Positions 3,222 through 36,481 of a stretch of 64,000 nucleotides of DNA are shown piece after piece; the first letter of the stretch is position 1; every line of letters starts with the position of its first letter. The stretch lies in the NCBI RefSeq assembly GCF_036365525.1, contig NC_090417.1, forward strand, positions 13,927,344-13,991,343. The letters are read 5' to 3'. The position numbers and the translations under genes are program-made. The stretch comes from Heterodontus francisci (lineage: Eukaryota). The notes under the pieces were generated by a model, which ran no database searches, was not told where the DNA came from, and was given only the letters and a program-made list of their open reading frames with translations.

Positions 3222-6200
3222 TCACATGTCACAAAGGACGTCAGGATTTTCTTTACTGTAGGCCTTGTATTTGCAAAGCCTCTTGTCAAAGACTGCCTCG
3301 CAATTACTTGGGACATCTGGCATTTGGACATATCTAGCAGAAGCGAAAAAGAGACAATGGGATTAGTGATGACAATTTGCATTCAGATTCCTTCCCCCTC
3401 CATTGTTAGTCAAACAGCATCAGTTTTATTCTTGCTACTTGAAACTGTTGGTAGCCAAGGTTGAAGATCCTGAACACACAAGCTGGGCTCGTGCTGCACT
3501 GCACTAAGGCAGTGACCAAAAAAAGAGACTTGCATTTCGATAGCGCCTTTCACGAACGTCACAATGTCCCAAAGCATTCTACATGCAATGAGGTATTTTG
3601 AAGTGTAGTCACTGTTGTAATGTTGGAAGTGCAGAAGCCAATTTGTGCAGAGCAAGCTCCCGCAAACAGCAATTGGATTCTCAGTTTTAGTGATGTTGGT
3701 TGAGGGATAAATCATCCTCAGGAGGCTGTGATGTTGATGCACTTTTACACCAGGCTACAGATGGGTTGACAAAGTCCCGTCTCAATTCAGCAAACTATTT
3801 CAACACATCTCCCAACAGCCGGAATTCTCTGAGACGTTTTTGCTCAGCTGATGGTGTGTCTAATGGTGCGTCTGACCTACGGTGTGAAGAGATTCTACAC
3901 TCTGGTAGAATACGGCTATGCTAATGTGACAATGCTAGTCACCAGGGGTGGTGCAGCGGTTAGCACCGCAGCCTCACAGCTCCAGCGACCCGGGTTCAAT
4001 TCTGGGTACTGCCTGTGCGGAGTTTGCAAGTTCCCCCTGTGACTGCATGGGTTTCCGCCGGGTGCTCTGGTTTCCTCCCACAGCCAAAGACTTGCAGGTT
4101 GATAGGTAAATTGGCCGTTGTAAATTGTGGGTGGTAGGAGAATTGAGGGAAGGTGGTGAAGTGGTAGGAAATATGGGATTAATGTAGGATTAGTATAAAT
4201 GGGTGGTTGATGGTCGGCACAGACTCGGTGGGCCGATGGGCCTGTTTCAGTGCTGTATGACTCTATGACCTACAGCAAAGAGTTATGTGAGGCTCTACAG
4301 TTTGGCTTGCCTCTCAACTTCAGTCCCTTACCCACACCATCCCTGTTGGAAGCACACCTCCCAGGTCAACCTCAAAGCACACAATTGCAAACCTGGGAAA
4401 GAACGTGCACATCTCGTTGTGGTCTAACTTACTCTGTGCAGCAGATTGCAGTCACCTTTCCACAGTAACAGGTATAGCAGTCTTCACTCTTCCACATTGC
4501 TCCAACCTTGTAGGACATTCCTTTATCCAAACACTCTGCAAGGAAGAAATCTCAGTGTCAAGCACTTCTCCTTCACTGCTCACACTTTTCCAGAACCTTC
4601 AGACAATTTAGGTGTCTGGCAGAACCCTTTGCAGAGCTGAAAAGTTAATCGGGGATTGATGCCTTGGATTCTGATGTCTCATACACCCATTATCCCTGTG
4701 CTCACTGACCTACGTTTGCCCCCACTTAACCAACACCACCATTTTAAAATTCCCATCCTTATTTCACATCCCTCCATGGCCTCTCCCCTCCCTATCTCTG
4801 GAATCTCCTCCAGCCCCACAACTCTCCGAGATATCTGCGTTTCTCCAATTCTGGCCTCTTGAACATCCCCAGTTTTAATCACTGCCCTAAGTTCTGCAAT
4901 TCCCTCCATACACCTCTCCGTCTCTCTCTACCTTTCCTCGCTTAACAACCTTCTTAAAACCTAGTATGGTTCATCTCCTTATGTGGCTTGACTGTCAGAT
5001 TTAGTTTGATAACTCTCCTGTGAAGTGCCTTGAGAGGTTAAAGGCGCTGTACAAATGCAAGTTATTGTTGTTGTCTTGACATCCAATGTGTTCCGGATTT
5101 TAAAAACACCACCCAGACTTTTCTCTTGATAAACCTGCGCATTAGAAAGGCCAGTCGTTCCCACCAGTCTGGCGGTGGCTGAGTGACCTAGTTAAGAATA
5201 TAACCTGATATACATAGTCTTCGAGAAGTCTCAGTGCCTGCTGCTGTGTCTTTGTGCTACTCTCCTGTAGCCCCAGAGCCTGCTTGCAGATGGAATATTT
5301 ATTGTAAAGACACTGCTGCTCTCTAGTGTCAAGAGCTGAGATATTGCAGAAACCAACTCTTAATTCTCTGATCCAACAGCACTGAAATGAGGGAAGACTT
5401 GGTGAGTTAGTCAGCATCATGCAGAGTGAGAACACTGCTGGTTAATGTTTAATGAGTGAGCCCTTTGTCACGACTGAGTGCTTCCAGCTATTCTGTTTTG
5501 TTTTGCATTTCCAGAATTCCCACTTTGCTTCCTCATTCTCTGCTTCTGTTCAATCCAAGCCAAGTGCAAACTGTATTTAATAAATGTCACATGAGGATTA
5601 CATCGAATTTGCAGCACAGAAACATAAGAACATAAGAAACAGGAGCAGCAGCAGACCCTTCGATCTCTCAAGACTGCTTCGCTATTCAATAAAATCATGG
5701 CTGACCTTTGATCTCAACTCCACTTTAAGCCCGCTCCCTATATCCCTTCATTCCCTGAGAGAAAAAAATCAATCTTAAATATGCTCAATGATGGAATATC
5801 TACAACCCTCTGGGGTAGAGAATTCCAAAGATTCACATCCCTTTGAGTGAAGACATTTTTCCCATCTCAGTCCGAAATGATTATCCCCTTATCCTGAGAC
5901 TGTGTCCCTGTGTTTTCGATTCCCCAGCCAGGGGAAACAACCTGTCAAGCCCCTTCAGAATCTTTCATGTTTCAATCAGATCACCTCTCATTCTTCGAAA
6001 CTCCAATGAGTATCGGTCCAATTTACTCAGTCTCTCATCACAGGATAGCCCTCTGATCCCGAGGAGCAATCTTGTGAATCTTTGCTCTGCACTGCCTCCA
6101 ATGCAAGTATATCCTTCCTTCAATATGGAGACCAAAACCGCACACAGTACTCCAGATGCGGTCTCACCAAAGCCCTGTCTAATTGCAGCAAGACTTCCTT

Positions 6201-9200
6201 ATTCCTGTGCTCCAATCCTCTTGCATTAAAGGCCAACATGCCATTTCATTCCAAATTGTTTGCTGTCCCTGCATGCTAATGTTTTGTGTCGATTTGGCCC
6301 AACAGGCTTGTGCTGGTTCTGTGCTCGTCCACTCTATCAACTTTCTCCCTCACACATATTCATTTCGCATCCCCTTAAGAGGATTGGAACTTGCAGGCTG
6401 AAATATCATTGAGTGTTCTTCTGCTAGGGCCTGTTGTGCAGTGTTGGGCATGTTATTAAACAGTGTAACACATGGTATCCCCTTCAATTCAGCAATAACA
6501 TCAAGTCCAGTATTGCTGCCGTTCAGGCTGCTCCTCATTGGTGACAAGTCATTGAAGATGAAACACTTTCATTTCCTGGAGCTTCACAACTGGATCATTA
6601 AATAGAATTGAAGAATGGGAATATTGTGGATGAAATAAGTTAGCAAAATGCATTCATATCTCATCCTTTCGAAAGAAGAATTGTGTTTACAGGAAAAAGA
6701 TGGACTTGTAGTTTGATCACTTTTTGTTCGATCACTTGTAGTTCGATCACTTTTTCACAACCCATGATGTCCCAAAGTCATTCGAGTCAATGAAGTACTT
6801 TCTGAGGTGCAGTCACCGTTGTAATATCGGAAACGTGGCAGCAGCAAATTTGCGCACAGCAAGCTCCCACAAGCAGCAACGTGATAATGACCAGGTAATT
6901 TCTTTGTGGGTGCTATTGGTTGAGTGATAAATATTGGTCATGACACCAGGGATAACTTCTGTCACTACTCTTCCAAATAGTGCTGTCGGATCTTTCACGT
7001 TCACCTGAGAGGGGGTGTCATCGAGGTGAAGAGACTTGAACCCATAATCCAGACTGTTGCTGCCGGTGCAGTATTGAGGGAGTGCTGCATTGTCAGAGAT
7101 TCTGTCTTTGGTCCACTCTCCCAGGTGGATCTAGTCGATCCCAGGACACTGTTTTGAAGACGAGGAAGAGAAGGGCAGTCTCCCCAGTGTCCGGGGCCAA
7201 TATTAATCCCTCAACTCACATCACTAAAAACAAGACTATCTGCTCGTTATCACATCGCTGTTTGTGGGAGCTTGCTGTGCACAAATTGGCTGCTGCATTT
7301 CCTGCTATTGCAATCATGACTGCACTGCAGAAAAAGAATGTGCTTCCTTGTCTATGAAGTGTTTTGGGAAGTGCTGAGGTTGTGAAAGGGTCTATCTTCA
7401 TTTCTTACACACCAGTCAGTGGCTAGTCTGACAGTTCATCATGTCATCAGCGCTTTCTCTCTGTTCTGTATTCCCCTCTCTCTCTCTCTCTCTCAAGTAT
7501 TGTGCTGAGATCCTTGGGGAAATGCTACACCAGTCAGAAAGGCTAGAGGCTGTGGGGTGGCTGTGTCAGAGATCATTTGATAAAAGCACTGACTTACCTG
7601 CCTCAGTCTTCATCACAAATTTGCAGTCGGAGTCACCCATGTCAACGGTCAACAGAAGCATTATGATGCACACAAGGGCTTTCTGCTAAAAAAAAGAAGA
7701 GGAAAGATTGAGACGTGGAGCTTGTTTGGGGGAATCTGTTGCAAGAGGCTGGTGTTCTTTCTGCTGTTAATCTTTCTTGATACAGCCAGAGCTCAGTGGT
7801 TCACACTCCTGCCCGTTAGTCAGAAGCTTGTGGGTTCAAATCCCCAGTCCAGAGACTTGAGTGCAAATATCCAGTGCAGTACTGGGGGTGTGCTGCACTG
7901 TCAAAGATGCCATCCTGCAGGTAAGACATTCTTCCAAAGCCCTGACTGCCCTGAAAGATCCCATTGGAGTGTTTCAAGGTGGAGCAGCGGAGTTATCTCC
8001 AATGTTTTGAACAATATTTATCCCTCAAACAGCATAAGTGGAACATATCACCCCAGTCACTATCACAGTGCTGGTTGTGGGATCCTGCTGTGCACAGATT
8101 GGCTGCGGCGTTTTGTGCATTACGACACTTCACAAGTATTTCATTGGCTGTGAAGTGAATTTGAACATCCTGAGGATAAGCAAGGTGCTCTAGAAATACA
8201 AGTCTTGCTTTGTTTTTCTCTCCATCGTTCTCTCTCTCTCTCTCTCTACAACTGGCACTTCATCGAGGGAGAGGAGAGGGTGAGACTGATCAGCAGTTGA
8301 GGTTCGTGTGGAGGGCGGGGGTGGGGTCTGCTGACCACACAGATAGTTGGAGAATGGGAAGGTATTTAGTCACAGAGTTGTGCAGTACTGGTACACTGGT
8401 CTCTGCTGGTAAGAGTGTGAGCTGGCAGTGGAGAGAGGGTCAGCTGGTTTCGAGGATAGGAGGAGTTGATGGATGGAGGGAGGGAGGCATTAACGTGTGA
8501 GAGCTGAATGAGTTTGCAGAGGATAGTGTGTGCCTCTGGAGCTGTGACCCAGCAGCAACTACGTTATTCAGTGAAGGAAGTGGAGAGATCCTTTTTAAAA
8601 TATCAAGCTTTCATTGCCTTGCGTTCTATCACCTAAGGACTCCTGTGTGGTCGTGCTCGATGGAGAGAACTCTCGAATTACCTCTTGCAGTCGGATGTGG
8701 TTTGCCTCGGGTAAAGTCTTCAATTCTCAGTCTCTATCCCTTGTCCTACAGCCAGTTGCAAAGGAGGGCAGTTGAACCCACAACCTCAGACCCCCTTCCA
8801 GATGAATCCAGCTCACAGCCTGAGCTGTGTGAGCACAGTGCCAGGAGATGTATCACATTGAATCGACAGCACAGAAACAGGCCATTCAGCCCAACTGGTC
8901 TTTGCCAGAATTTATACTCCACACCATCCTCCCAGTCCTCTTCACCTCACTACATAATCATCTCCTTTTCTTTTCTTTTCTCCCTCATGTGTTTATCCAG
9001 CTTCCCTTTAAATGCAAGGATACCATTCCCCTCAACCACTCCCTGTGGTAGTGTGTTCCACATTTTCACCACTCTCTGGGGAAAGAAGTTTCTCTTGAAT
9101 TCCCTTTTGGGAGAGGGGTGGTTTGCCTTGCAAAGGAGCTAGAATGCCTCAGCTTCCCATCTTTAAAGCCTGGCTGATGTCCCCAGCAACGAAAGTTGCC

Positions 9201-10143
9201 CATTTTTCCACTTGCTACCCTGATACAGTCACTGCAGCACCAGTTTCCGACTGATGGTTCTGTTGTTCTCTTCACTGAGGGCACAGTGTTGCAGGGGCAC
9301 TGAGATGAAATGTGTTGCTTTGCTCCTGTCTGTTGCTGCGTCGAGAATCTGTAAAGGGGAATGATGCTGTGAAAGTCACGTCTTCTAAATGAATGGTGCA
9401 AGAGGTGTGAGGGGGCTGACTGGTTTACTCCACAGCCGATGTTCCTCTGTGTTTGTTTGGTCTGCTGACACCTTTGTTAGTCTGGCTTTGAGAGATTCTG
9501 TCATCTGGAGTAGTTTGAACATGAATCTTTATTACAGTATCACCATGTACCTCTTCACACTAGTCTGAGTGACTCTTCCAAAGCCACGGAACCTTCACCT
9601 TCAAGTCTCTCTCACATGTGATCCCATAAATCATCATGGTTGGAGGTATTCTTTACACACTCTCAACATTAACCCTTTCAGACCCTCATACTCCAATCGG
9701 ATAAGGCCGAACCCTATCCTCACCACCCTGCGCCTACAGTCCTTGAAGCAAGGGGCAGGGGACAATGAGAATCTGTGTGGTTTTCTCTCTGTGCAGTCTG
9801 GAGCTATTGAGGCACCCTGCTTACTGATCGAGTTTACTGCAGCCTATTGATAGGAGACTTGGACCTTTCTGCTTCAATCACGAGGTTTGGGAATTGGCTG
9901 ACTCAGCTACAGAGTCATTGACTTAAACAACAAGATCTTGACATCGTACAACACTGAAGGAGGCCATTCGGCCTCTCGTGTTTGTGCTGCCTCTCTGAAA
10001 CAGCCACAATGGTTTGGCTCTGATTTCAAGCGAATGTCTCTTTGTCTAAGAAAGATGCACTGAGTTCAAAACAGTCCCGAAAATCCACCAAACATTTACA
10101 CGTCAGGAAGTGTGAAGTGGGAACTTATACTGACCTGTGCCAT
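3222..10143 (-). CDS. Beta-microseminoprotein/PSP94-family secreted protein, paralog A; complement(join(3222..3333,4433..4535,7598..7682,10135..10143)); first exon tentative
   Basis: Three exons with canonical AG/GT ends and intron phases 0,1,2 splice in frame to KALVCIIMLLLTVDMGDS-DCKFVMKTEAECLDKGMSYKVGAMWKSEDCYTCYCGKVTAICCTEYVQMPDVPSNCEAVFDKRLCKYKAYSKENPDVLCDM*. This is a signal peptide plus 10 Cys in PSP94 spacing (C..C..W..CxxCxC..CC..C..C..C). AATAAA lies at 3006-3011 (-). The start exon aatcATG GCA CAG|gtcagt is the best candidate but unproven. MSMB versus MSMP assignment is uncertain. Confidence 0.88.
3525..3720 (-). mobile_element. Deu-domain SINE fragment
   Basis: Same core and 3' tail as the copy at 240-525. 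Confidence 0.7.
3943..4268 (+). mobile_element. HE1-like V-SINE (tRNA head, V domain, CR1-type tail)
   Basis: A box ggtgcagcggttagc, B box gggttcaattc, V core gggtttccgccgggtgctctggtttcctcccaca, and tail tgggccgatgggcctgtttcagtgctgtatgactctatgac shared with CR1 3' ends. Confidence 0.85.
4675..5070 (+). mobile_element. L2-type LINE 3' fragment
   Basis: Translates HTPIIPVLTDLR (degenerate HITPVLxxLHWLP motif). Tail aaaggcgctgtacaaatgcaagttattgttgtt. Confidence 0.7.
5620..6285 (-). mobile_element. CR1 LINE 3' fragment
   Basis: (aacataag)n tail, ctttggtgagaccgcatctggagtactgtgtg (RPHLEYC). Confidence 0.85.
6740..7400. mobile_element. Two Deu-domain SINEs in inverted orientation (minus ~6740-7010, plus ~7060-7400) in intron 2 of paralog A
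   Basis: gcacagcaagctcccacaagcagcaa at ~6853 and its complement ctgtttgtgggagcttgctgtgcac at ~7258. Confidence 0.75.
7790..8205 (+). mobile_element. Near full-length Deu-domain SINE
   Basis: tRNA head gctcagtggttcacactc...gggttcaaatccc, Deu core, tail ctagaaatacaagtct. Confidence 0.75.
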
Positions 10144-10419
10144 GATTGCTGCTCGCAAACCTTCAGGAAGATCCCTGTCGACGATGCCTGTTGCACTGTT
10201 CTTGACACTGGAGAAGGGATCTCAGCTAATCTGCATTGACTGCGAAGGTCCCAGTGACAACCTTCCTTCGATTTGACCGAGCAATATAAAGCTCTCTCAA
10301 TCAGCAGCTGCTGCACAAGAGATACAGCATGAAATCTGGAAAGAGCTCACCGTGTCTTTGCAGGAGGAGGACAGAGATCAGAGACTGCGGATACTGTTGG
10401 TGACTTTCCAGCCATTGTC

Positions 10420-10790
10420 ACAACTTGCTTTTATATAGTGCCTTTCACAATCTCAGAACCTCCCAAGGTGCTTTCCAGCCAATGGGGTACTGCTGAAGTG
10501 TGGTTACTGTTGTAACTTCGGCAAATGCTGAACTGTCTTGGCTACAGTGTAGTCACTGAATGGCAATGAAACAAGTGACAAGATAATCTGTTTTTTTTTT
10601 GTAATGTTGCTTTGAAGGGTGACTGTTGAAAGAACTCCCTTGTTGTCCTTTGAAATAGTGCTGAGGCTTCTTTAGCAGCCACCTGGTGCCTCAGTTTCCA
10701 GTCATACCTCTGGCAATGCATCACTGCACCCGGAGTGGTCTCGAGTCTCTGGCATGGCATTTAACTCCACCACATGAGGACTCGGGTCAG
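10420..10790 (-). mobile_element. Deu-domain SINE, degraded
   Basis: Tail cttgcttttatatagtgcctttcac and family body sequence. Confidence 0.6.
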
Positions 10791-12179
10791 AGTGTCAGGG
10801 CTGACATGGGGAGGAATGAAAAAGACATGGATTGGGAAATTCCTCAGGGAATTCCATCACATTTCGAATCCTAGAATCTCAGAACACAGAAGGAGGCCAT
10901 TTGTCCCATTGTGGGTATCCCATTGAAATGTGGAGACGATTGAAGGACGTGAAGTGTGACAAAGGGGAATTCACACATCATTTGTAAAACACACACTTCA
11001 GGCAATGTGAGAGGCCATGTCCGTATACGGTAAGACATTCTTTCCACTGACCTGCATTTGACACTTTCTTGATGCATGTCCCACTAACAAAAGACTCCAC
11101 ATTGGCTGAGCAGTCCAGCACAATGCCAGTCAATGCGCAGGTCTAGTCCTGGAACGTCATTGCCTCCAGGTCTTCCTGTGGGGTTGTTTGCTTTTTCAGG
11201 CAGTTTACCTGAGTTGCAATGGGGATTGGAGAATGTCAGAGCAAGACTATTGCTTCAAATTTCTGCCTCACACTGCCCAGCCAAACTTCGACTGAAAGGA
11301 ATGGTGGCTTATCACACCTATCAGAAATCTCCAAGAACGTCATGCACTTCAAAGTGCGCTAACCATTGCTTATGTTTCCAAATGAAACAGCCAGTTTTCA
11401 CTCAGCAAGATCCCACAAACGACCGTCAGATGCATGACCAGTGAATCTGGTTTTTTTTTTGGTAGCATTAATTGAGGAGGAAGGTTGCCTCAGCCAAGTG
11501 AATGAGGGGGACACGCCCTCAGTTTAGCACTTCTTCCACAAGGTGACATTTTGGCCAACATCCCACTGAAGTGTCAGTCAGCCCAGACGAGGTGGACACA
11601 TTGAGGCAAGAGTTGGACCAAACTGAAGCAAGCTGGCATTGCAAAACTCCTCGGCTATGGGAAGGTCGGAATGCAAGGATGACGGGATAACTCCAGGAGA
11701 CAGAGCCCACTTCAGACACTCTGTGACTTGGAACAGAGGGTGAGGAGGAGAAGAATTCTCAGATCTCGGAGACAAGTGCCCAGGGAGAGGGGAAAAACAG
11801 GGACAAGAGAAAAGCAGCAAATATTGAAACCCAAGCTGAAAGTCCTCCTGAATTCCACTTCATAATGAGAATGACAGGGGCAGGATTGTTATTCTTAGAA
11901 TATTTTGCGAGTCCCAGGCTGGGTGTTGGCCTGTAATTAAAGATCATTTTGGTTGGGGAAATTGCTAGGAATTTGTTAAAAGTGAAATAAGAAGTGCAAG
12001 TTTTTGGCTAACTCTTGCGTGCCTGAATCATTTCTCATGGAGTCATCTGTGGAATCTCAGTTGAGCAATGCAGTGTGAAAAAGCTGGTGAAATGGTCTCC
12101 CTCTATCCTTTGCCTTATGGTGCCGTTGTGATGGGGCAGGGGTGGGGATAAGAAGTTGGGATCTACATTAGAGTGTCAG

Positions 12180-12880
12180 CTTTAATGCACAGTCACCTCT
12201 GGGGCACACAGATCGAGCCTGAGGCCTCACTCTGTCCTTTCAGAGGAGACGTTTGAGGTCTGGGCTGCCTGATTAAGCTGGATGTACGTGATCCCAAGGC
12301 CCTGCATTTCTCCATTTCGAGCATCTCCGATTTCCAACACTCCACCATTGGTGACCGTACCTTCAGCTGCCTGGACCCGAACATCTCGCAGTTCCTCCCC
12401 AAAGCTCTCTGCCTCACTCCCCTCCTTTTAAAACACTTCTTCAAACCTATCCTTTGGGCCAAGCTTTTGCTCACCCCTGTGCTGACATCTCCTGAAGTTG
12501 GCTCAGTGCCAAATCATGTTTTCAAATGCCTTGTGGCGTGTTACCACATTCACAGCACGATATAGATGCAAGTTCTTGGTGTTTGTTGCAGCTGTTGGCG
12601 GGACTTTGCTGCAATTACACCAGAATAACTGTGCTTCAGAGTGATTTGCGATGTAACATTTCTCAGAGATATGAATAAAGTGTAAAGTGGATGCAGAGAA
12701 GATGTTTCCGATTTATGGGGCATCCATAAACGAGGGGGCCATCAATATAGACTGCTAAATCGACTAGGGAATTCAGGAGAAACCTCTTTTCCCAGAGACT
12801 GGTGGGAATGTGGAACTCACTGCCACAAGGAGTGGTTGAAGTGAATCGGAGATGTATTTAAGGAGAAGCTGGATGAACAC
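12180..12880 (+). mobile_element. Composite of degraded SINE, L2 3' and CR1 3' fragments
   Basis: L2 tail at ~12320-12580. CR1 WNSLP-coding gtggaactcactgccacaag at ~12810. Confidence 0.55.
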
Positions 12881-14524: not shown

Positions 14525-14915
14525 AAAGATTTGCTTTTATATGGCACCTTTCGTGACTCAAGACGCCCCCAAAGCAAGGAAATACTTTTGAAGTGTCGTC
14601 ACTGTTGCAGGAAATGCAGGAGCCAATTTGCGCACAGCAAGATCCAACAAAGAGAGATGTGCGAAGGAGCAGATCATCTGTTTCAGCGACGTTGTTTGAG
14701 AGAGAAATATTGACCAGTGCACCGAGGAGAACTCCCCTGCTCTACCTCATCTTATACATCTACCTGACAGAGCTGATCAGACCTTGCTTTCACATCTCAT
14801 CCAAAAAGTAACAGCTCAGACAGTGCAGCACTCACTCAGTACTCAGCCTGGACTGTTCTGCTCAGTTCTCCTGGAGTGGGACTGGAAGTGGACCCCACAA
14901 CCTTCTGACTCTGAG
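14525..14915 (-). mobile_element. Deu-domain SINE
   Basis: gccaatttgcgcacagcaagatcc core plus tRNA head near 14890-14915. Confidence 0.7.
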
Positions 14916-15574
14916 TACCAGCTGACCCCGGGCTGATGGAAATGGACACACCTCGCTTAATCTGCATTATCTCAGCTTGGGCATCTTTGAAAATGGTCTT
15001 TGTTCCAGCATTTCGTACAAGTGGAAGCAACACGTGAGAATGACTGGCTGGAAAGTGCCACTCCTGTTGTTCAAGAGACTACAGTCAGGGTGCACTGAGA
15101 GAAAAGATCATGTTTTTTTGTTGCTGCCAAAGAAACTCTCCCAGTTCTTGTCAAGGCTATCGCCCAGCATTGCTGTAACTCGAAAAACTGTATGTTATGA
15201 TCTTTCTCATTGCAATTGTAATTTGTCAGAGCTGAGAACGTCATTGCTTTTGAACCTTGTGTACAGGACACTGGGGGCAGGGTGTACTGGTCGAGTAGCT
15301 CAGCCTTGCAATGCACTTTGTCTTGGAATGAGTGACTCACCACACTTTTTACCTTGTGCTTTCTCTGGGATAGGATCAGGGCAGCAGTCGGGAATAATAC
15401 ATCTCCCGGTAAATGGGGACTGTGGTTTGAATGTGTGTACCCTCTCCTGGCTGTTCTGGATTAAACTCTTTCCCCGGGCACATGATGTTACCCTAGGGAT
15501 GTCCCTCAGTCCCTGAGGGACTGTGGAGGTCATCACAAGAGTCCTTTGAGTCCTTTTGTAAACTTACATTTGGG

Positions 15575-21864: not shown

Positions 21865-24800
21865 TTATTTCCCAACACCTCCCTGGGCATGACAACTCAC
21901 AGAAGGATCATTCCTCTTGTGGATGTTGAACCGACAATTCTGACGGTCAAAAACTGCCACACAATCCTCTGGGTACATTTTTGGGGTGGTGTACCTGGAA
22001 AATCAAAGAGAAACAATGCAGAGCATGAAGAAGATCTGTCAGAAAGTGTTAAACGTGCTTTATCCTAGTTTTCATCTGCACTATCCATTCATCTCTTCAC
22101 CTACACTGTCCCTTCATTTCCATTAACATCATCCCTTCATCTCTTCATCAACCCCATCGCTTCATTTTCTCTTAAACACTGTCTCCTGCTGTGTTTCAGT
22201 GGGACTTCAGGCTTCTTCCCACTCCTCACACCCACTCTCCCATCCCAAACATTTCACCTGCAGAGAGTGCTGTGAACTGTTGACCAGTCGGCCAGTGCCT
22301 CGAATCCCAACCTCACCTCTTCCCAATTGTGAAACCATTGTGTACTGAGAGACAGTAAATCAATGCACCAATGTCAAGCTTATTGACCATCAGAAGAGAC
22401 TAGATAGCAAAATGCAAACCTTGCACTGGCTCAGTGTTTGTGCTCTGAAGAGCTTTGACCCTGTGCAAACTCTTTCAGTTGATTGGTTAGGAGTGTGGGT
22501 GTCACTCAAGTACTGGATCAATTTGTTCCTCTCCTGGTCCCGGCTTGATTTTGCAACCAGTTCAGCACAAATTAGACAGATCAAATTCTGCTGATCCAAC
22601 TTGACATTTTGTCTTCTGACCCACTCTCCCATCCCCCTTACCGCCCACTGCCCTCCCCCCTCGCCACCCCCGCCTCCGTCCCCAACCCTGTCCATTTTAT
22701 CGATCTTGCATCATCCAGGTTGCTTGTGTGATGTGTCAGGCTGTGACCTGTCTGGAGAAGACCAGAGGAAAGCAGCAATTGTGCCGTGTTTGCCAATCTG
22801 CAGACTGGCCTTGAGCTGACGCTTTATACCAAATCCACTTGGTGATTCAATAAGTAGCAGTCAAGGGTAAATGCAGCACTGCATCAGGGTTACGTCTGCC
22901 CGAAGCAACAGAGAGCCACTTACGTTGCACAACACCTTGCAAAACCAGGCAAGCACCTACATCTTATACAGTCAGAGTTTGTCCAGCTTTCCCCATTCTC
23001 ATGCCAGGTCCCATCAACGTGATCTCTGCATCTGTCGGAATCTGTTGGTGAGAAAGATAGAGATTCATCTGACAATGTCTCTTCAAAGAGTGAAAGGGTA
23101 CCATGGGGTAGCATTGATCTTGTGGGGCTCTCAGCAACTGGTCTGGGTCACTCGATTGTTTTAATTCCCGCCCTAGCACTGACCTGTTTGGAACTGGAAA
23201 AACGCCGGGTCTGTTCCCGAGCCAGTTGACCGGGCCTGGGTGTTGGGTGACCTTTGACCTGGGGTTTGCCTTGGCTGCCACAGGTCAGGATCCGGCTTGC
23301 CACCAGCTGGGATGTAATTTTAGGCAGTCTGCTGGAGGAGTGTCACCGTGGTAACCGCAGTTTGTAGGCCGGACTCTCATTTGCACCCAGCTGGACCAGC
23401 TCTGATGTAACTTGCCGGTTTGTGAAGCCAGGAAGTGGGCCCCACTCCTCCTTGCACCCTCGCTGGATAGGGAAGGGGAAGGCGATCCCTGAGGGAAGGC
23501 CTCATGTGGGCTAGGAGGATCACTCAGTTCCATCCATACTGGCAACATTCATTGGTTAAAACAGCTCTGGTATGATACACCCGGCCCCAGTCCTTAGTTT
23601 CACCACCAGGTCTTCAAGCAGAGTTTGGAACGATTCACTACGTACCACTCTCTGAGCCAGTCGTATAGCAGGCTGATTCTCCATCTTCAATAGCCAGGAA
23701 CAGCAGAGTGACACACACAAAGAATTTCTGTTGGGAGAAGGAAAGACCATCTTGAGGAATACAGTCATGTCACTTAGTTTACACTAATTCCCGGTCGGAT
23801 GCAAGTTCTTCACTCAGAGTGTTGTGAATATGGAAGAGACGCTTGGATGGGGACAGTTCGAGAGGATCAAGGTATAAGCTGAGAAGTGGTTTGGTCAGGG
23901 TGGTCTGTTTATAAAAGGGAGAGAAATGTTGAACCCAGTTACTTTCACCTGATGCAACACACCATCTGCTTGGGGATTAGCAAGGTAACATCTCTGTTCA
24001 TAACTCAACAGAATCGCAGCCGGGAGTTGACATATATTTTGAGGACAGAAGCATTCCGGGTGGGGTTCCCAATTCTCCAGCATTGTCCTGAAATCTATAG
24101 GAATGAATCTTCATGGCACGGCACTGCACTGCACGTGAGAAACATACAAATCAGGAGCAGGAATAGGCCTTTCTGCTCCTCGAGTCTCCTCTGCCATTCA
24201 ATAAGATCACAGCTGATCTGATTGTAACCTCATCTCCACATTCTCGCCTGCCCCTATTAACTTTTCACCCCCTTGCTTATCACGAATCTGCCTTAAATAT
24301 ATTTAAAGACTCTGCTTCCACTGACATTTGAGGAAGAGAATTCCAAAGACTCTCAACCATCTGAAGGAAAAGATTTCTCTTCGTCTCCTTCTTCAATGGG
24401 CGACCCCTTATTTTTAAGCATTGACCTCCAGTTCTAGATTCTCCCTCAAGAGGAAACATCCTTTCCACATCCACCCTGTTGAGACCCCTCAGGATCTTAT
24501 ATGTTTCAATCAAGCCGCCTCTTACTCTTCTAAACTCCAGCGGATACAAGCCTAGCTTTCCAACTTTTCCTCACAAGACAACCTGCCCATTCCAGGTATC
24601 AGTCTAGTAAACCTTCTCTGAACTGCTTCCAACACATTTACATCCTTCCTTAAATACAGTACACAGTGCTCCAGATGTGGTCTCACCACTGCCTTCTTGA
24701 ACCACGACAGTCCATGTGGGGTAGGTACACCCACAGTGCTGTTAGGAAGGGAGATCCAGGATTTTGACCCAGTGACAGTGAAGGAACGGTGATCAGTTCC

Positions 24801-25261
24801 AAGTCAGGATGGTGTGTGACTTGGAGGGGAACCTGCAGGTGGTGGTGTTCCCATGCATCCGCTGCCCTTGTTCTTCGGGGTCTCGGAGCTGCTGCTGAAT
24901 GTTACAAGCATGACGGGTTAATTAGTGCTGATCTTTAGCTGGCTCAGGATCTGGGGCACTGCTGTCTCCTGCTCTCCTGTTTCTGAGGATCTGGGGAAGG
25001 GGCTGCCCATTCTACACCACCCATTTACAGGGTCAAGCCTGTGAAAACTACAGAGACACTCATGGAACTGTTGTGTATTCCAGCTTTGCTCTTGTTGCTG
25101 AACCAGTGACATCCAGAGTGAGCAAGTTGACCCAAATAATACATTATCAGTGCAACAGAATGGCCTGCAACAAAACCAAGCATTCATGCAGTTAACTTCA
25201 CCAAGACGAAATAATCTTTCACAAGTACAAATAGGATCTTACTGAGACTCAAACCTACCAT
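21865..25261 (-). CDS. MSMB: Beta-microseminoprotein-like protein, paralog B (110 aa); complement(join(21865..21994,22924..23041,23646..23727,25259..25261))
   Basis: An ATG|gtaggt micro-exon and exons of 82, 118 and 130 nt with canonical splice sites give MKFFVCVTLLFLAIEDGES-ACYTTGSESDSDRCRDHVDGTWHENGESWTNSDCIRCRCLPGFARCCATYTTPKMYPEDCVAVFDRQNCRFNIHKRNDPSVSCHAQGGVGK*. All 10 PSP94 cysteines are present, and the exon/phase layout matches MSMB (ATG-only first coding exon). AATAAA lies at 21751-21756 (-). The symbol denotes family, not proven orthology. Confidence 0.93.
24140..24875 (-). mobile_element. CR1 3' fragment (24140-24688) joined to a second LINE family fragment (24688-24875), in intron 1 of paralog B
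   Basis: VRPHLEHCV...SLWNSLP. The right part is nearly identical to 15645-15835. Confidence 0.85.
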
Positions 25262-25329
25262 CTTTACCCCAGTGACATCCAGGTTATCCACGCACAGAGA
25301 GAGCACCTTCTGTCCTGTGTCCTGTGGCA

Positions 25330-25345
25330 TCGATTTTTATTCGTC
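25330..25345 (-). promoter_or_regulatory. Putative TATA-like element of paralog B
   Basis: cgAATAAAAAt lies ~75 nt upstream of the ATG. A similar cgAATAATAc sits ~60 nt upstream of the paralog C ATG (36539-36549). Confidence 0.4.
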
Positions 25346-27354: not shown

Positions 27355-27756
27355 CAAAGTGATTGATGACAACGCTACGTTATCAGGATGCGCCGCGGTG
27401 CACACATGTGCACACGGTCTCGGGCCCTCTGTGCATGCGCTGCGGTCCGGTTTGCCAGGACCAGTTTGCGCATGCGCAGATGACATCATCGCGTAACGTC
27501 ATCTTCCTCGGGGGACACGCCAGGTTGGCCTTTGTGCATGCGCAAACTGGTCCTGGCAATCCGGACCGCAGAGCATGCGCAGATGACCGGAGCCCGTGTG
27601 CGCATGTGCGTCAATCTTCCGAAAGCTTCGGCGCGAGTTTTTGAAAATGGAAGGAGGAGAAGTTTCGTCGGGCATTTTATCTCAATTATTTAGTCATTTT
27701 GGACATTTGCTTCATTTTTATTAGACAGAGGAGATTGTTCCAAGCTAAGTTGCTCT

Positions 27757-28076
27757 NNNNNNNNNNNNNNNNNNNNNNNNNNNNNNNNNNNNNNNNNNNN
27801 NNNNNNNNNNNNNNNNNNNNNNNNNNNNNNNNNNNNNNNNNNNNNNNNNNNNNNNNNNNNNNNNNNNNNNNNNNNNNNNNNNNNNNNNNNGGGGGAAGGG
27901 AGGAGAGAAGGGGGGAAGGGNNNNNNNNNNNNNNNNNNNNNNNNNNNNNNNNNNNNNNNNNNNNNNNNNNNNNNNNNNNNNNNNNNNNNNNNNNNNNNNN
28001 NNNNNNNNNNNNNNNNNNNNNNNNNNNNNNNNNNNNNNNNNNNNNNNNNNNNNNNNNNNNNNNNNNNNNNNNNNNN
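27757..28076. other. Two N-runs (27757-27890, 27921-28076) within a purine-rich tract
   Basis: Directly visible gap or masking. Confidence 0.99.
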
Positions 28077-29899
28077 GGAAGGGAGGTCGGGGGGGAGCAG
28101 CGGAGCGGAAGGGGAGTGCCTTTTTCTGTGCATGCGCCATAAACACAAGGACTGGCTGATGAGATGGAGCCAATTAATTTGCCCAACAATTGCCCGGAAG
28201 CACCTTCGGATGGAGGTGGCCATGCGCTGGACATCAGTCGCGTGCCACAATCCATGGCTCCTGAGCGTTTCACCCCCTGGCCTAATGATCTGATGGACCA
28301 TACATACGCCTGCCTGTTCAAAGCTCCACTTCCCCTACCTGCGGTACCCTCTCCTTGCTGTTCAGTTACACAGTCACCTGTTCCTGCACCCATCCAAGCA
28401 GTGCACATGGACACACAGCCACATGTTTCCCCATCCGCCCTTGAAACTACCATGCAGAGCCTTGTGAGACTCCGCAATTGCCAGCTGCTGCCTGTCAAGC
28501 AGAGAAGGCGTCCAAAGGGGTCAAGCACTTGGGGAACATTCAGCAAGAAGAGACTGAGCACTAAAAGAAACAAGCATGCCGTGTCCAGTGGTAGCACAAA
28601 TGTGAATGCTCTTGCTGCGTACACAAGTGGTGAGGTGGGAGTGCAGCCACACCATTCTCCATCCTCAGTGTTGCTTTAAGGCAAAGGTAGATAAGAGTGA
28701 AAGAAATGGAAGATGATGCTGATAGTAGTAGGCAGGATTAAATGGGAATGGATGGGAAGACGCACGAGTAGCATAACCACTAGCAGGGAACAGCTGGACT
28801 AAATGGCCTGCTTTATGTTCATAGTCCAAAAGAAATGTGCTTCTTTTTCCAGCACCCTCACATCATTCATGTTTTCCCTGAGAGCAGCATTGAACCATCA
28901 CGAGATAGGGGCAGTAACATCATCCTGCCTCCTACAGCTGAGGTGGGAACTAAGTGATTCATTGGCCTATACTGCAGAGCATAAAGCATGCGCAACAGTA
29001 ATTTCATTGGAGGGAGGGAAGCTCTGACTCTGATTTGCTTTATTTCTTTTCATGTAAAACATGCCGTCGAGAAAACAATCCTCGAGACTTACGGTCAGCA
29101 TTCAAGCAACGAAGGCAACTGGATCATGCTGTGGAGCTCATCACGATGTGGAAAGGAACATTGCATTTATGGATGAATTGGGAATGCACATTGGGATGCG
29201 CTTGGGGAACATTCACCAAGAATAGACTGAGCTCAGACTCTTGTGACTTTGCCTTCTACACATGGACAATACAGTAGTGGAATAGAGAGCCAAGCGTTCA
29301 TTCACCACAAGGCTCTCCAGGAACAATCTCTTTAGCTGTGCATATCAGAGACTCGGCCTGTCTGTCTAACAGGAATGCTGGACACAACACTCATGTATCC
29401 ATGCACAGCAGTTCCTCGGATACTTAATGAACTTAATAAAACTTTTCAATAATTAAACCCAGAATTGTTGAGGTTTTGTTTTGCATGTTATTTCCCCAAC
29501 TTTGTAACTGCACTTCAGATATTCAACTATGGTGGAGGGGTGGAGGTAGGGGGGTAAAGGAGGGGTGGAGGTAGGGGGGTGAAGGGGGGATGGGTGAAGA
29601 GGGGGAGGGGTGGGGAGTGCGGGGAGGGGTGGGGAGAGTGAGCATGCAAAATGCAGGGACCAGACAGTTGCAATGCCTGAAGTACTGTGCAGAAGTAGAG
29701 AAAGCAACTGGATTGGGCATCCGCAGCTGGAGGGAAGGGCTGAATGGAGAGGGGCGGAAGCGAGAGGCCGTAGAGAGCCGCGGGGAGCGAGCGTGCGAAG
29801 ACCTTGGTGTCACCGGGTCCAGGGACTGGCCAGTAAGTCTTTTGCTGTTGTGTTTATAGCGCATGCACAGAAAAAGGCACTCCTCTTCCACTCCGCTGC

Positions 29900-30265
29900 T
29901 CCCCCCTCCACTCTCACCCCTTCTCCCCCCCCCCCCCCTCCACTCTCCCCCCCCCTCCCTCTCCCTCTTTCTCCCCCCTTCCCTCTCCCTCTTTCTCCCC
30001 CCTCCCTCTCCCCCCCCTCCCTCTCCCTCTTTCTCCCCCCCCTCTCCCCCCTCCCTCTCCCTCTTTCTCCCCCCCCCTCCCTCTTTCTCCCCCCCTCCCT
30101 CTTTCTCCCCCCCCCTCTCCCCCCCTCCCTCTCCCTCTTTCTCCCCCCCTCCCTCTCCCTCTTTCTCCCCCCTCCCTCTCCCCCCCTCCCTCTCCCTCTT
30201 TCTCCCCCCCCTCCCTCTCCCTCTTTCTCCCCCCCCTCCCTCTTTCTCCCCCCCCCCCCCCACCC
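29900..30265 (+). repeat. Polypyrimidine low-complexity tract (ctccctctttctcccccc)n
   Basis: Directly visible. The long G/E- and P/S-rich ORFs over it are artefacts. Confidence 0.95.
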
Positions 30266-31342
30266 CCGGCACCGCTACCGCTGGTCTCCCCCTTTCTCCC
30301 CCCCACCAGCACCGCTACCGCTGGTCTCCCCGCGCTGCTCTCCCCGGCCAGCTCCACTCTCTCACTCCGGCCATTGTATTCTGCCACGTGTTTGTCAGGT
30401 TTCATCTCTGTGATTTTTTGAGCAGCGCCATCTTTAGTCCTGGCAGCTGCGACAGTCGCAGGCTGTGACGTTTTCGTGGCACATGCTTTATCTGCGCATG
30501 TGCCAAAACAGCGCCACCTACCGATCGCGTTGTCAACAATTGCGGTCTTAAAAATAACGGGTCGCTCATTTAAGACAGAGATGATGAGAAATTGTTTCTC
30601 TCAGATAGTCGTGAGTCTTTGGAATTCTCTTCCTCAAGAGGAGGTGGAAGCAGAGTCTTTGAATATTTTTAAGGCAGTGGTAGATAGATTTGTGATAAGC
30701 AAGGGGGGGAAAGGTTATCGGGGGTAGGCGGGACTGTGAGTTGAGTTTCCAATCAGATCAGCCATGATCCTGTTGAATGGCAGAGTTGGCTCGAGGAGCC
30801 GAGTGGTTGAGGTGAATAGTGTCGATGTATTTAAGGGGAAGCTGGATAAACATATGAGGGAGAAAGGAATAGAGGGTTCTGCTGTTAGGGTGAGATGGAG
30901 AGGGCTGGGCGGTGGCTCATATGGAGCCTGTTTCTTTGTTGTAGATTTGATATAAAATCTGATTTCCATGAGTTCTCGCCTTTCACTTCATTTCATTTTC
31001 TTTTGAAATTAATTGTATAATCTGTCAGATCTGCAGGACAATGGTTGATTTTGACCTGAGACTTCCCATGACAAGGCATACTTCAATTCAGCAACTTTGT
31101 GGAGCAAGAAAGAAGCCCCTTCAGTGGCTTTGTGACCAACAGCAGGAACGAACTGGGAAGGAGATCTAAAGGGGGAGGGAATCTCCAGATAAATAGACTC
31201 CAGGATCTCATCACTGTGGAATTTGGGATCTGTCTTTTATTTTGTTTACATCGCATCAAGAATACAAGACTGGCAATTCTCAATGTCTTTCTCCATTGGA
31301 AGAGGGCCGCGTGTTTCATTCAACTCCTTCCCAAACAGTTTC

Positions 31343-34300
31343 TCACGTCTTACACACAATGGCAGGGTTGTTCCTCTTTTGGACCCTGTACCGACAATTC
31401 TCCCGCTCAAACACCGCGATACAATCATCTGGATAACTGGTCGGTGTGGAATACCTGGAATGTCAATCGGAAAACCAAAGGTCAGCAATGCAGAGCTTTA
31501 ATGACTTTCCAGTTAGCAAGGGTCAACTGTGCACTGTCCACTTTTCAAAAGAACAAGTGCTTCACTGCCTATCATCAGGGACGTTGTCTCCTTCATTTCC
31601 CACCCCCTTCTCCACCTTCTAATCCCCCATGCTTCCTGTCACAAAGTGGGGGCAAGTTTTCATGCCTTTAAAACAGCAGGTATAGACCACACTGCCACTT
31701 GAATCTGCTCTGCCATTTCAACAAGATCTTCCATCTTAAATCCACTGTTCCGCTCAGTCACCACATCTCCTCATTCCCTTCGTCTCCAAACATGAAGTGC
31801 ATGGAGTTGTTGAGTTCTGTGAGCCCCAAGGACATATCATAAGTTTACTGTGGCCTCACCTCCACAGTTTGAAATTCTTTAGCTTGTTCAACCCTCCTTG
31901 GGGATTCGAGCCATTTTGCACTGTGACCATTGGTGGTTAAACAGGAATACAGCAGGACAGCAGTTATTTTAAAGGACCAATAATACAGAGGCCTGGACTA
32001 TTAATCTATAGACATGAGTTCAAATCCCACCAAGGCAACTGGGGAATTTAAATTCAATGATTGAAATAAATCTGGAATTGAAAGCCACTCTCAGTAATAG
32101 TGCCATGAAATTATCATCGATTGTTGTAAAAAAACCCATCTGGTTCACTCATGTCCTCCAGGGAAGGAAATCTGCCGTCCTTACCTGGTCTGGCCTACAT
32201 GTGACTGCAGACCCACAGCAATGTGGTTTACTCTTACATGCTCTCTGAAATGGTCGAGCAAGCCACTCAGTTGTCTTCAAGAAGGGGGTTCACCCTCAAC
32301 CTCTCAAGAAGAGTTAGCAGTGGGCTAAATGGATCAGACATCGGCGTGCCAGCAATGACCACGTCCCCTGAATGAATTTAAAAACAAGTACCAAGCACTG
32401 CCAAGGTTCGTCCCGTGAATCTCTCTTCTCCATCCCATACCTACACATCATCACACTCTGCCGTCTTCTTCATGTGAGGTGTCTCCATTGCTGCTCGTCA
32501 CACCATTCCACATCTCAGACCTATGTGAGAATACCGCTGTGACTGGCTGGTAGAAGGCTGAAACCAGACTTTGCTGATAGCTCGGTAGGTAAAGACACAA
32601 TGGTGAGTTACTGGGTCATCCAGGTCAGGAAGATTCCATGTTCAGTCTCCGCCGCACTGTGCTGAGCTAGTTTATTCTGACCAAGGCAGCAGGTAGGAGT
32701 GTTAGAATTGTTCTCAGTCCACTTGGACCAGGCTGAGTTGCAGCTTTAGATTGTGGTGAGGAAATTCTGTTTTAATAAGTGTATATAGACATGGACTGAG
32801 ACCAGGATTGGATTCGACTGTGATGCCACATCCAGTCGAATAGCTTGCCAACAGTCATTGCCATCTGGGCTTCGTATTAATAATGTACTGGAATTCCACC
32901 AGCAGTGATGCACTACAGATAGCATGAGTTGGGCAAAAGGGTGGTGACGGTGAGGACGATTAAAGGAAAGCTGATACTTACACATCCCAGCATGCGACCA
33001 CTGTATGAAGGCATTTACATATCTGGCAGTCAGAGTTCCTCCATTTCGACCCTAGATTGTGCATCGTGCGATCAGTATGGTCCTTGCATCTACCTGAAGT
33101 CAAGAGGAAATTAGGCTTGAGTGTTTTTTGGAAGCTGGGACACTGTATCCGTGTGGATTGTGAGTAATGTGATGGTGAGATCGAAATAAGTGTTAGCAAT
33201 ATGCTGTGCATAAGTAAAACTAGGTACAAACCTTATAGCTCTGTACATTATTATTCTGATAAATACAGCCCCACTCAGCTTTGAAAAGGTGTAGGATATC
33301 ATTTCGAGTGTGATAATTCACAGTAAATTAGGATTCAAACAATATCTTCAGTCTGGAATTTAACTTTTGTTTGGAGAGCGTCTTTGTAAGATTAATCATA
33401 GAATTACACTCGAAGACAGGCCTTCAGCCCAACTGGTGCCTGCTGGTATTTCTGCTTTACACAACCTAAATCCCACCACTTCTTCATCTCACCTGATCAG
33501 TATATCCTTCTATTCCTTTCTCCCTCATCTGTTTATCCAGCTTCCCCTTAAATACATCTCTCCGATTCACCTCAAGCACTCCCTGTGGTAGCAAATTCCA
33601 CATTCTGGCCACTCTGTGGGGAAAGTGGTTTCTTCTGAATTCCCGATTGGAATGATTGGTGACGATCTTATATTGATGGCCCCTAGTTCTGGTCTCCCCC
33701 CCCCCCCCACTCCCACAAGTGGAAACATCGCCTCGACGTCTACCCTCTCAAACCCCTTCATTATCTTCAAGATCTTGATGAGGTCAACCCCAGTCAGCCT
33801 GCGTTTTTTTCTAGGGAAAAGTCTTCCCAGCCTGTTCCATGTATCCTGATAAGTTATAAACTGGAATCATCCTTGTAAACCTTTGTATTTGCGTCCTCTC
33901 CAGTGCCTCGATATCCTTTGTGTAATATGGAGAGCTGAGTGTTGAGGGTACACCAAGTGTGGTACAACCAAGAATCTAACCAGTTTTATCACATCTGGTG
34001 ATGTCTTGTGAAACACTAAGTGACAATCTACCCCAGCTGGCACTGCCTGCTTGCTCGTACGGAGGCCGGAAGTCTGCTCGAAGCCCCCAGTCCCAGGAGA
34101 GCCTCCCTCCCTAAATTCCTGAACTCCATGCAAAGGATTCAAAGACCCATGACTACTCACCAGAGTTTTTTGAGTAAATTTTGACAGCAGATTCCAGAAG
34201 AGCGAAGGCTGTGAGCAGCAAGACAAGACACAAGGTGACGTTCTGAAAACGAAACAGGCCAGGCCATGTGTTAATGGAAGTCAGATGATTGAATGGTTCC

Positions 34301-36481
34301 AGCACAGAAGGAGGCCATTCGGCCCATCATGTCCGTGCTGGCTCTCCGCAAGAGCAGCTCGCCGACTGCCATTCCCCCCCAGCCTTTCTCCCCAGATACC
34401 TGCAAATTCTTTCTCTTCGGATAGTTCCCCAATTCCATTCTGAAGGCCTCGATTGAATTTGCCTCCACCTCACTCTCAGTCAGTGCATTCCAAATCCTAA
34501 CCACTCGCTGAGTAAAAAAGGTTTCCCCCCTCATGTCGCTATTGCTTCTTTTGTCACTCACCTGAAATCGGTGTCCTCTGGTTCGATATCCTTCCGCCAA
34601 TGGGAATAGTTTCTCCCTATCTCCTCCGTCCAGATCCCTCCTGATTTTGAACACCTCTGTCAAATCACCTCTTAATCTTTTCTCCAAGGAAAACAGACTC
34701 AGCTTCTCCAGTCCAGCCACGTAAGTGGTGGTTGGAGTGGGTGGGGGCGGTGGGACTGACTGGATTGCTCCGCGGAGAGCCGGTATAGACTAGATGGGCT
34801 GAATGGCCTCTTTCTGTGCTGTAAGTGACTCTCTAACTTCATGACTTTATGAATCTATTCTGCATCCTCTCGAATGCCTTTACATCCTTCCTGAAGTGGA
34901 GTGCCCAGGACTGCATTTTGTGGAGACCAAACCAGTTTTTTGTATAGGTTTATCATAACTTCCTTGTTTTTGTACCCATGCCCCTCTTTATAAAGCCCAG
35001 AATCCCGTATGTTTTATTTACATGTGAGAGCAATGCCCCTGGCTGCTGAGCTTGCCTGGCCCGAGCAAGAGGAATAAATGTGATCTGCAATTGGGAAAAT
35101 GCTGGCAAACTCCTCGACTTCTATTTCCCCTCAGTGGAGAGGAATAAATAGACATTATTTCCTCCAGACAGACCTTCAAAATTACACTGTGGAAAAACAC
35201 CATCCAAATTCTTCATCCCTTTCATCTGGAGTTTCTTGGTCCAGGGTTTGAATCGGAGGCATGAACCTGTCTAAAATAAATGGTGAAAGTTCTCAAGCGA
35301 AATGGTAGCTTCCATATTGCTGTCCATTTCGATGGTTTGGGCTTCTTAACAGTCCTTAGTGATCTCATAGGGTCTCAGTAGAAGCAGATTCTGCTTCCAA
35401 ACCTTCTCCAGCAGAGCTGCAAACGCTGAGAGATAATGATTCCTACCCTCCTCTAACTCGTTCACTCTATTTCACCAGAGGTGTCCGATACTACCAAACT
35501 CTCAGAAGCACTGCATGTAACAAAGGACTGCAGACTGAAGCAATCAACATCTTTATTGTTGAGATTTATCGAACAATACAATTCAGCCAGCAAACAGCAA
35601 GTGCTTCAGAAACATAGGAACGAAAAGTTCCACCACGGGTCGACAACCCTTCAGAAACACTTGTTTTCAGATTGTACACCAAGCATAACTGGAAATTCAG
35701 TGGAGAAGATTCTGGCAGTTTGAGCCTAGTTCCAGCATCTCCGAGGCCCTGATACAGCTCAAGAAGAGAATATGAGGGAACATTTGTTATCTTGCCCAGG
35801 AATTGCTTTGCAACAAACTTTTTACATCTTCACTGTCAACCCAACCCTCATCACCTCCTTTTAAGAAAAGAAGATTCTGTGGCGACATTAATCTTCATGC
35901 AGTTTGAAAACAAGAAATAACTGGGGCACAAGTGCAGTGTGAAAAGAACTCATCTCGTGTGTCCTGTGGCGCAGTGGGCAGCACTCTTCCCTATTAGTCA
36001 GAAGGTTATGGATTAAAGTCCCACTGGAAAATCTAGGCTGATTTTCCCAGTGCTGGTACTGAGGGAGATGATGTCTTTGTGATGAAATTGAAGAGCTCGC
36101 GATCCTTTCAGTGGCTCTATGTCAAAGAGAGCAGGGGGGGTGGGGGGTTCTGGACAATTTTTTATCCATCAGCCACCAGCTCAAAAAAAACAAATGACCT
36201 GGTTATGATCAGAATGATATTTATGGGAGCTTGCTGTGCACAAATTGGCTGCTGCATTTCATGAATTACAATACTTCAAAAAGCATTCATTGGTTGCAAA
36301 GTGCTTTGAGCGTCTGAAAGGCACCCGATGAAAACAAGTGTTTCTTTGGATAGATACGAGTATGCAACAAAAAAAAACCAAACACAATCAGCCTTTCCAA
36401 TGAACGTCTGACAAAGTTAAATTGAAGAATTGCTTTCTCATTATGAGGTGAAATGTATGAGAAAATCTGCATACATACCAT
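31343..36481 (-). CDS. MSMB: Beta-microseminoprotein-like protein, paralog C (102 aa, 8 Cys); complement(join(31343..31454,32982..33093,34161..34242,36479..36481))
   Basis: An ATG|gtatgt micro-exon and exons of 82, 112 and 112 nt with canonical splice sites give MNVTLCLVLLLTAFALLES-AVKIYSKNSGRCKDHTDRTMHNLGSKWRNSDCQICKCLHTVVACWDVYSTPTSYPDDCIAVFERENCRYRVQKRNNPAIVCKT*. It is a clear paralog of B at DNA and protein level. AATAAA lies at 31236-31241 (-). The symbol denotes family. Confidence 0.9.
31985..32385 (+). mobile_element. tRNA-derived SINE whose 3' tail resembles the LINE end at 15575-15660
   Basis: B box gagttcaaatccc. Tail ttcaagaagggggttcaccctcaacctctcaag aligns by eye to the LINE sequence ttcaagaaggcaactcatcaccacctcctcaag. 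Confidence 0.65.
33395..34000 (-). mobile_element. Degraded CR1 3' fragment in intron 2 of paralog C
   Basis: KIMKGFERVDVEAMFPLVG motif and a CR1 tail. Confidence 0.75.
34290..34720 (-). mobile_element. CR1 3' fragment
   Basis: LFSLEKRLRGDLTEVFKI...FFTQRVVRIWNAL. Confidence 0.85.
35965..36340 (+). mobile_element. Deu-domain SINE
   Basis: tRNA head tggcgcagtgggcagcactc and core gggagcttgctgtgcacaaattggctgc. Confidence 0.7.

Follow-up and report, generated by a model that had tools for sequence, protein, structure and literature searches.

A probably old tandem trio of beta-microseminoprotein-like genes in the horn shark, including an eight-cysteine variant

Proteins of the PSP94 family, the beta-microseminoproteins (MSMB), are secreted, about 10 kDa in size and built of two small beta domains, and they bind their partners by edge-strand pairing. 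Tandem arrays of such genes, on a four-exon plan, have been reported for chicken (three genes), opossum (14), lizard (seven), zebrafish (three USMH genes) and the habu snake (five, later six) (PMC3268785, PMC7150969), and the reported roles of the family include fertility, innate immunity, egg defence and toxin neutralisation (PMC8167871). Sharks, skates and cartilaginous fishes go unmentioned in the main text of PMC3268785, whose supplement includes a single skate expressed sequence tag; our literature searches, which did not cover subscription papers, found no account of an elasmobranch microseminoprotein cluster. Here we describe three genes of this family in 64,000 nucleotides (nt) of the genome of the horn shark Heterodontus francisci (contig NC_090417.1, positions 13,927,344 to 13,991,343; hereafter the window). 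The genes, named A (10143-3222), B (25261-21865) and C (36481-31343) in window coordinates, all lie on the minus strand, and we are confident that they make up an old cluster encoding secreted proteins of the PSP94 fold.

The Pfam PSP94 profile (PF05825) recognises all three full-length proteins, with 40.5, 37.7 and 49.9 bits for A, B and C against a cut-off of 22. All six exon-3 and exon-4 pieces match it, collinearly (profile positions 15-51, then 55-91), and none of the three exon-2 pieces matches any Pfam profile. A six-frame scan for the cysteine pattern gave 13 matches, including three minus-strand stretches resembling exon 3 near 4.5, 23.0 and 33.0 kilobases. The six-frame profile search of the window returned exactly the same six pieces at E ≤ 6e-9, and since the next match reached only E = 0.09, the window contains no fourth copy or pseudogene within the reach of that search. 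An exon-3 query of A retrieved a 100% identical H. francisci protein. The spliced translations of A and C equal XP_067879248.1 and XP_067879144.1 exactly, and that of B equals the C-terminal 110 residues of XP_067879526.1, which has 23 further N-terminal residues. RefSeq names all three proteins "beta-microseminoprotein-like"; A, B and C are real horn shark genes that are already catalogued.

These matches bear out most of an earlier note on this DNA, which had described three minus-strand, four-exon genes of the PSP94 family from a cartilaginous fish. Its limits are exact (3222 is the stop of A and 36481 the ATG of C), as are the open reading frames, the AATAAA signals and the canonical splice sites (GT..AG in 9/9 introns). 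The shared exon layout that it saw applies to exon 2 (82-85 nt), exon 3 (103-118 nt) and the intron phases (0, 1, 2), but not to the start exon of A, which holds three codons. The genes are hidden, as the note put it, only in the open reading frame track, and its claim of novelty falls to the RefSeq entries.

Among solved structures, each shark protein matched six sequences, all of them MSMBs or SSP-2, one of the snake small serum proteins (SSPs). Chicken MSMB3 was the top sequence match for A and B and the top Foldseek match for C. The AlphaFold model of C (mean predicted local distance difference test score 81.9) gave five Foldseek matches at E ≤ 0.001, every one to MSMB, PSP94 or SSP-2, and superimposes on 3ix0 with template modelling scores of 0.66/0.76, so that C is predicted to adopt the two-domain all-beta fold of PSP94. 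For A and B the assignment was made through sequence matches to solved chains; a look-up in the ESM Atlas returned the family name only. Each sequence begins with a hydrophobic leader, seen as helix 3-15 in the model of C. With the cleavage sites placed by alignment to 6rwc, the mature proteins are likely secreted beta-sheet proteins braced by disulfides and about 81-91 residues long. Ten of the ten conserved mature-chain cysteines are present in A and in B, and eight in C; judged by this pattern, A and B are of the canonical ten-cysteine MSMB type and C is an eight-cysteine variant of the wider family.

The three genes differ sharply in conservation. Over the 68 columns from Cys2 to Cys10, A is 78-88% identical to its orthologs in six sharks and 69-75% identical to those in six batoids; the A-type alignment has 35 invariant columns across 13 rows, and the beta1 stretch is identical in all 11 models that possess exon 2. 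The nearest relatives of B reach 56-60% in other sharks (four proteins) and 39-47% in batoids and the elephant shark (six proteins). Orthologs of C are 73% (Stegostoma) and 71% (Chiloscyllium plagiosum) identical; a C. punctatum model of the C type carries an insert and was left out of the trees. The same difference appears within pairs of species: between horn shark and Scyliorhinus torazame A is 87% and B 57-60% identical, between horn shark and Cetorhinus A is 84% and B 60%, and between horn shark and C. plagiosum A is 88% and C 71%. S. torazame has two copies of the B/C group, 81% identical to each other.

A profile search of a library clustered at 50% identity gave 290 proteins at E ≤ 0.001, the best 150 of which were listed. 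The FastTree phylogeny used 150 rows of 158 considered, after prior exclusion of seven isoform, fragment or aberrant rows and of proteins longer than 280 amino acids; it places B and C inside a 14-row group (0.95) whose members are all chondrichthyan by name. IQ-TREE analysis (62 chosen rows, 90 columns) recovered an A clade of 13 rows (100/98), a C clade of three rows (100/97) and a B/C group (97/91). A, B and C all fall outside the outgroup rows, which we take to be MSMP-like. Two hagfish proteins (P0034 and P0036) named beta-microseminoprotein-like place the family in cyclostomes; FastTree linked them weakly to A (0.70), but IQ-TREE did not uphold this link.

By these comparisons the split between A and the B/C types predates the split between sharks and rays, A is slow-evolving, and the B/C types form a faster, mainly chondrichthyan group that is still duplicating in individual lineages. 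In all six other species in which both types were found (Heptranchias, Cetorhinus, S. torazame, C. plagiosum, Leucoraja and Rhinoraja), A and B/C types lie on contigs of equal size, which shows at most a shared chromosome and not tandem order; the tandem cluster itself likely also predates the shark-ray split.

The earlier note had instead proposed an independent, rapidly diversifying expansion. Such an expansion, recent, specific to the horn shark and driven by positive selection like that of the snake SSP array, would fit the low identity of the paralogs (29-50% over Cys2-Cys10; outside the shared cysteines 20-24% for A versus B or C and 44% for B versus C, a divergence that the note had seen correctly) and has a precedent in the accelerated evolution reported for snake SSPs (PMC7150969). 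In an approximately unbiased (AU) test, set up after the tree was known with the note's hypothesis as the one tested, a clade of horn shark A, B and C alone was rejected (p = 8.65e-79); a horn shark B+C clade was not (p = 0.066). A and C instead fall into separate clades with proteins of other species. Synonymous divergence (dS) between the paralogs is saturated (1.9, 2.2 and infinite), with nonsynonymous divergence (dN) below it and their ratio uninformative. The introns show no homology beyond repeats: 8/8 checked non-microsatellite matches are interspersed repeats with 4-12 copies in the window, and the sole exon match between paralogs at the DNA level is that of B and C in exon 4 (75%). 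Age therefore accounts for at least as much of the divergence of the paralogs as speed does. We regard a recent expansion as very improbable. The faster B/C types, with their mainly chondrichthyan membership and lineage duplications, are what stands of the proposal; the conservation of A, the rejected trio clade and the saturated dS go against the rest.

Toxin binding, a further suggestion of the same note, found no support, and its suggestions of immunity and reproduction are analogies. In favour of antitoxins that neutralise the shark's own toxins or those of its prey, as snake SSPs do, are the fold and exon layout that these genes share with SSPs and, in IQ-TREE, the weak placement (89/86) of the A clade as sister to four SSP-like rows, among them one with SSP-2 as its best match (E = 1e-23). 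SSP-2 is nevertheless the weakest of the six solved relatives for every shark protein (E from 1e-4 to 7e-4, versus 1e-10 to 2e-11 for the best), nothing in the data indicates a toxin, and an arms race would hardly have left A so strongly conserved in predators, planktivores and rays alike. Toxin neutralisation is the least supported functional reading, and we consider it improbable.

Gene C departs from the family pattern in one respect. Both Cys1 and Cys7 are missing, and the same pair is absent in three carpet-shark orthologs (66-71% identical to C in database alignments). In chicken MSMB3 the first cysteine is reported to pair with the seventh (C2-C43), linking strand beta1 to strand beta6 (PMC8167871). 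Cys7 is absent in just 4/150 family rows, namely three C-type rows and one further protein, P0156; these 150 rows are not independent (19 are added, named elasmobranch rows), and gaps in the Cys1 column of six others reflect trimming or a missing exon 2, not losses. P0156 is SSP-like, has a long acidic repeat insert and lacks Cys7 and, by eye, Cys1; an independent loss of the same disulfide is possible. Published work assigns to beta1 both the binding of CRISP3 and the formation of the PSP94 dimer (PMC8857485, PMC7150914, PMC3268785), and a missing beta1-beta6 disulfide would be expected to alter the binding edge of C. The absence of two of ten conserved cysteines could also mark C as a decaying copy in which cysteines were lost at random. 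We find this hardly credible: the two missing residues are the partners of a single disulfide, the carpet-shark orthologs lack the same two, the reading frame is open, RefSeq lists two isoforms, and the predicted model keeps the fold.

The mature proteins also differ in charge: C is basic (net +6, isoelectric point 9.0), A is acidic (isoelectric point 5.0) and B is near neutral. A direct antimicrobial function, or a structural one in egg case, egg jelly or seminal fluid, in the manner of chicken MSMB3 or marsupial USM and without CRISP binding, would suit the basic C, the prominence of chicken MSMB3 among the structural matches, and the resemblance of one conserved copy in a variable cluster to the reported situation of avian MSMB3 (PMC3268785). 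A, however, is acidic and not cationic like MSMB3, and the conservation of its orthologs does not differ between species that lay eggs and species that bear live young, as we take these species to reproduce. Such a function seems to us somewhat unlikely.

The reading that we favour, with a probability of roughly 0.8, is an old tandem trio of secreted, PSP94-fold binding proteins with a division of labour. The leader would be cleaved and the mature protein secreted, as is usual in the family. Each protein would then use strand beta1 and the C-terminal strand to dock on partners of the CAP/CRISP type, as PSP94 and SSP-2 do, and damp their activity. To judge by the rates, the copies may have split the work after old duplications: A would have stayed with a single conserved partner of the animal itself, in all likelihood a CAP/CRISP protein, and the B and C types would have drifted to variable partners in mucosal or reproductive secretions, with C turning basic and losing the beta1-beta6 disulfide, a loss that would change its binding edge. 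By analogy with the family, we put CRISP/CAP binding by at least one copy at even odds, and a defence role for B or C is plausible, if a little short of that. A bolder version is unlikely: two undescribed elasmobranch subfamilies with new functions, one of them (A) unusually conserved and tied to one endogenous partner from a time earlier than the shark-ray split, the other (the C of horn shark and carpet sharks) with a freed beta1 recognising another class of target, for example microbial surfaces.

Several points weigh against an old trio with divided labour. Its functional part draws entirely on analogy. In IQ-TREE, 20 of the 59 inner branches are open, and the B/C group also takes in two rows that are not identified as chondrichthyan, so that its restriction to chondrichthyans is not firm. 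Orthology of B is loose, the B rows sharing one branch in 16% of bootstrap trees. To these come the AU result for B and C and the limit of the contig-size comparison, both given above, and the zebra shark ortholog of C, whose net charge of only +2 weakens a cationic antimicrobial view.

The gene models are collected in Table 1. The start codon sits exactly at the 3' end of exon 1 in B and C, and A carries two further codons there. For A an ATG-only first exon was tried; it offered weak donors only and was superseded by the three-codon exon, whose 5' limit (10296) is merely the end of the contig piece in run X1 (10135-10296). A second acceptor 3 nt upstream of exon 2 of A yields RefSeq isoform X1 (XP_067879247.1); for C, moving the acceptor by 3 nt failed to give its isoform X1. 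In B (25259-25345), the RefSeq ATG lies a few bases past an AT-rich, TATA-like stretch and sets 23 residues ahead of the leader; of the two start codons, the family-type ATG (25261) looks the more probable.

Table 1. Exons, start codons and polyadenylation-type signals of the three genes (window coordinates).
Feature	Position	Strand	Remarks
A, exon 1	10135..10296	-	coding part 10143-10135, three codons; matches N-terminus of XP_067879248.1
A, exon 2	7598..7682	-	85 nt; hydrophobic leader and Cys1
A, exon 3	4433..4535	-	103 nt; Cys2-Cys7; PSP94 E = 2.7e-5 alone
A, exon 4, coding part	3222..3333	-	Cys8-Cys10; stop TGA
A, AATAAA	3006..3011	-	210 nt past stop
B, exon 1, coding part	25259..25330	-	family-type ATG 25261-25259; RefSeq ATG at 25330, upstream, in frame
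B, exon 2	23646..23727	-	82 nt
B, exon 3	22924..23041	-	118 nt; PSP94 match; contiguous with exon 4 in contig X2 record 14
B, exon 4, coding part	21865..21994	-	130 nt; stop TAA; PSP94 match
B, AATAAA	21751..21756	-	108 nt past stop
C, start codon	36479..36481	-	3' end of exon 1; translation equals XP_067879144.1
C, exon 2	34161..34242	-	82 nt; mature part lacks Cys1
C, exon 3	32982..33093	-	112 nt; Trp replaces Cys7 (second Cys of CC pair)
C, exon 4, coding part	31343..31454	-	stop TGA; PSP94 E = 2.4e-4 alone
C, AATAAA	31236..31241	-	101 nt past stop

Spliced transcripts of A and B were sought among public contigs, four of seven runs being compared with window 3050-23049, a span that has gene C outside it; the contigs come from at most two samples and are presumed to be RNA, a reading that rests on their skipping introns; none of the runs is registered as RNA, which speaks neither for nor against it. 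They show splicing of both genes. For B, contig X2 record 14 passes directly from exon 4 into exon 3. For A, the part of contig X2 record 9 that follows exon 4 is unplaced and exactly as long as exon 3 (103 letters), and contig X1 record 2 stops at the exon-1 donor (10135) with 228 further letters not placed, which would correspond to exon 2, exon 3 and 40 nt of exon 4, with a 31-letter overlap with the next contig. Record 9 of X2 also appears to join a stretch of intron 2 of A (5205-5432, minus strand, GT donor at 5205) to exon 3; this stretch brings no in-frame ATG or leader to exon 3. The database models of gene A in Chiloscyllium and Cetorhinus likewise have odd N-termini. Over exon 4 of B (window 21749-21994), contig depths were 586, 52 and 8 in three runs of one sample. 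This does no more than hint at tissue-specific expression, contig depth being a poor measure that cannot rank expression.

MSMB orthologs are marked by synteny with FAM21C/WASHC2C, ANUBL1, PPYR1/NPY4R and ARID5B, and USMH/SSP orthologs by synteny with ARID5A. No other host gene was found among the 41 open reading frames of at least 130 amino acids in window 1-54500, four of which were scanned with Pfam. Between B and C, at 27755-28076 and 29523-30330, two runs of N (290 in total) lie beside low-complexity purine/pyrimidine-rich repeats, and this small gap could hide sequence. A nearly full-length non-LTR (lacking long terminal repeats) retrotransposon occupies 49929-53748 on the plus strand, with an open reading frame resembling a GDSL esterase followed by endonuclease and reverse transcriptase in two separate frames; it is presumably of the CR1/L2 type. 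It adjoins a 53-bp tandem satellite (54471-64000; about 180 copies, 94% match) with strong GC skew that runs off the end of the window.

The trio reveals no previously unlisted genes and no new kind of system. It extends the recurring small MSMB/USMH tandem clusters to cartilaginous fishes, and its sole unusual point is that C lacks Cys1 and Cys7 as a pair, which makes this protein a natural test of the role of the beta1-beta6 disulfide in CRISP binding and dimerisation. The function of the family is still debated, and the slow-evolving A should ease identification of a partner.

Set beside MSMB/PSP94 itself (PF05825; 3ix0, 2iz3), the shark genes share the domain, the ten cysteines in A and B, the predicted fold in C, and a plan of four exons, the first of which ends in the ATG, as reported in PMC3268785. 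They differ in having three copies versus one, in the eight cysteines of C and in the slow evolution of A; whether they are orthologous to mammalian MSMB or to USMH is not settled by the tree. MSMP/PSMP belongs to the same family and evolves slowly, as A does, but is reported to have three coding exons (PMC3268785), and an MSMP/PSMP identity was rejected for A, B and C because all have four. Marsupial USM is, like C, an eight-cysteine member of the family; USM has lost its C-terminal domain; in C both domains remain, and what is missing is the beta1-beta6 disulfide.

Snake SSP-1 to SSP-6 and the USMH arrays of lizard and zebrafish are likewise tandem, with four exons and the same fold. Snake SSPs are described as young, lineage-specific and partly accelerated (PMC7150969), in contrast to the old shark trio, and in the short SSPs nonsense mutations have removed residues from the C-terminus, where C instead lacks the Cys1-Cys7 pair. 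Avian MSMB1-3 (chicken chromosome 6; MSMB3, 6rwc) are reported to be, as here, three old tandem paralogs of which one is far more conserved (PMC3268785), and the exon sizes that the supplement of that paper gives for chicken MSMB3 (3/85/103/130) compare with 85 and 103 in A and 130 in B. Unlike MSMB3, the conserved shark copy is acidic and not cationic, and the tree lends no support to A as its ortholog.

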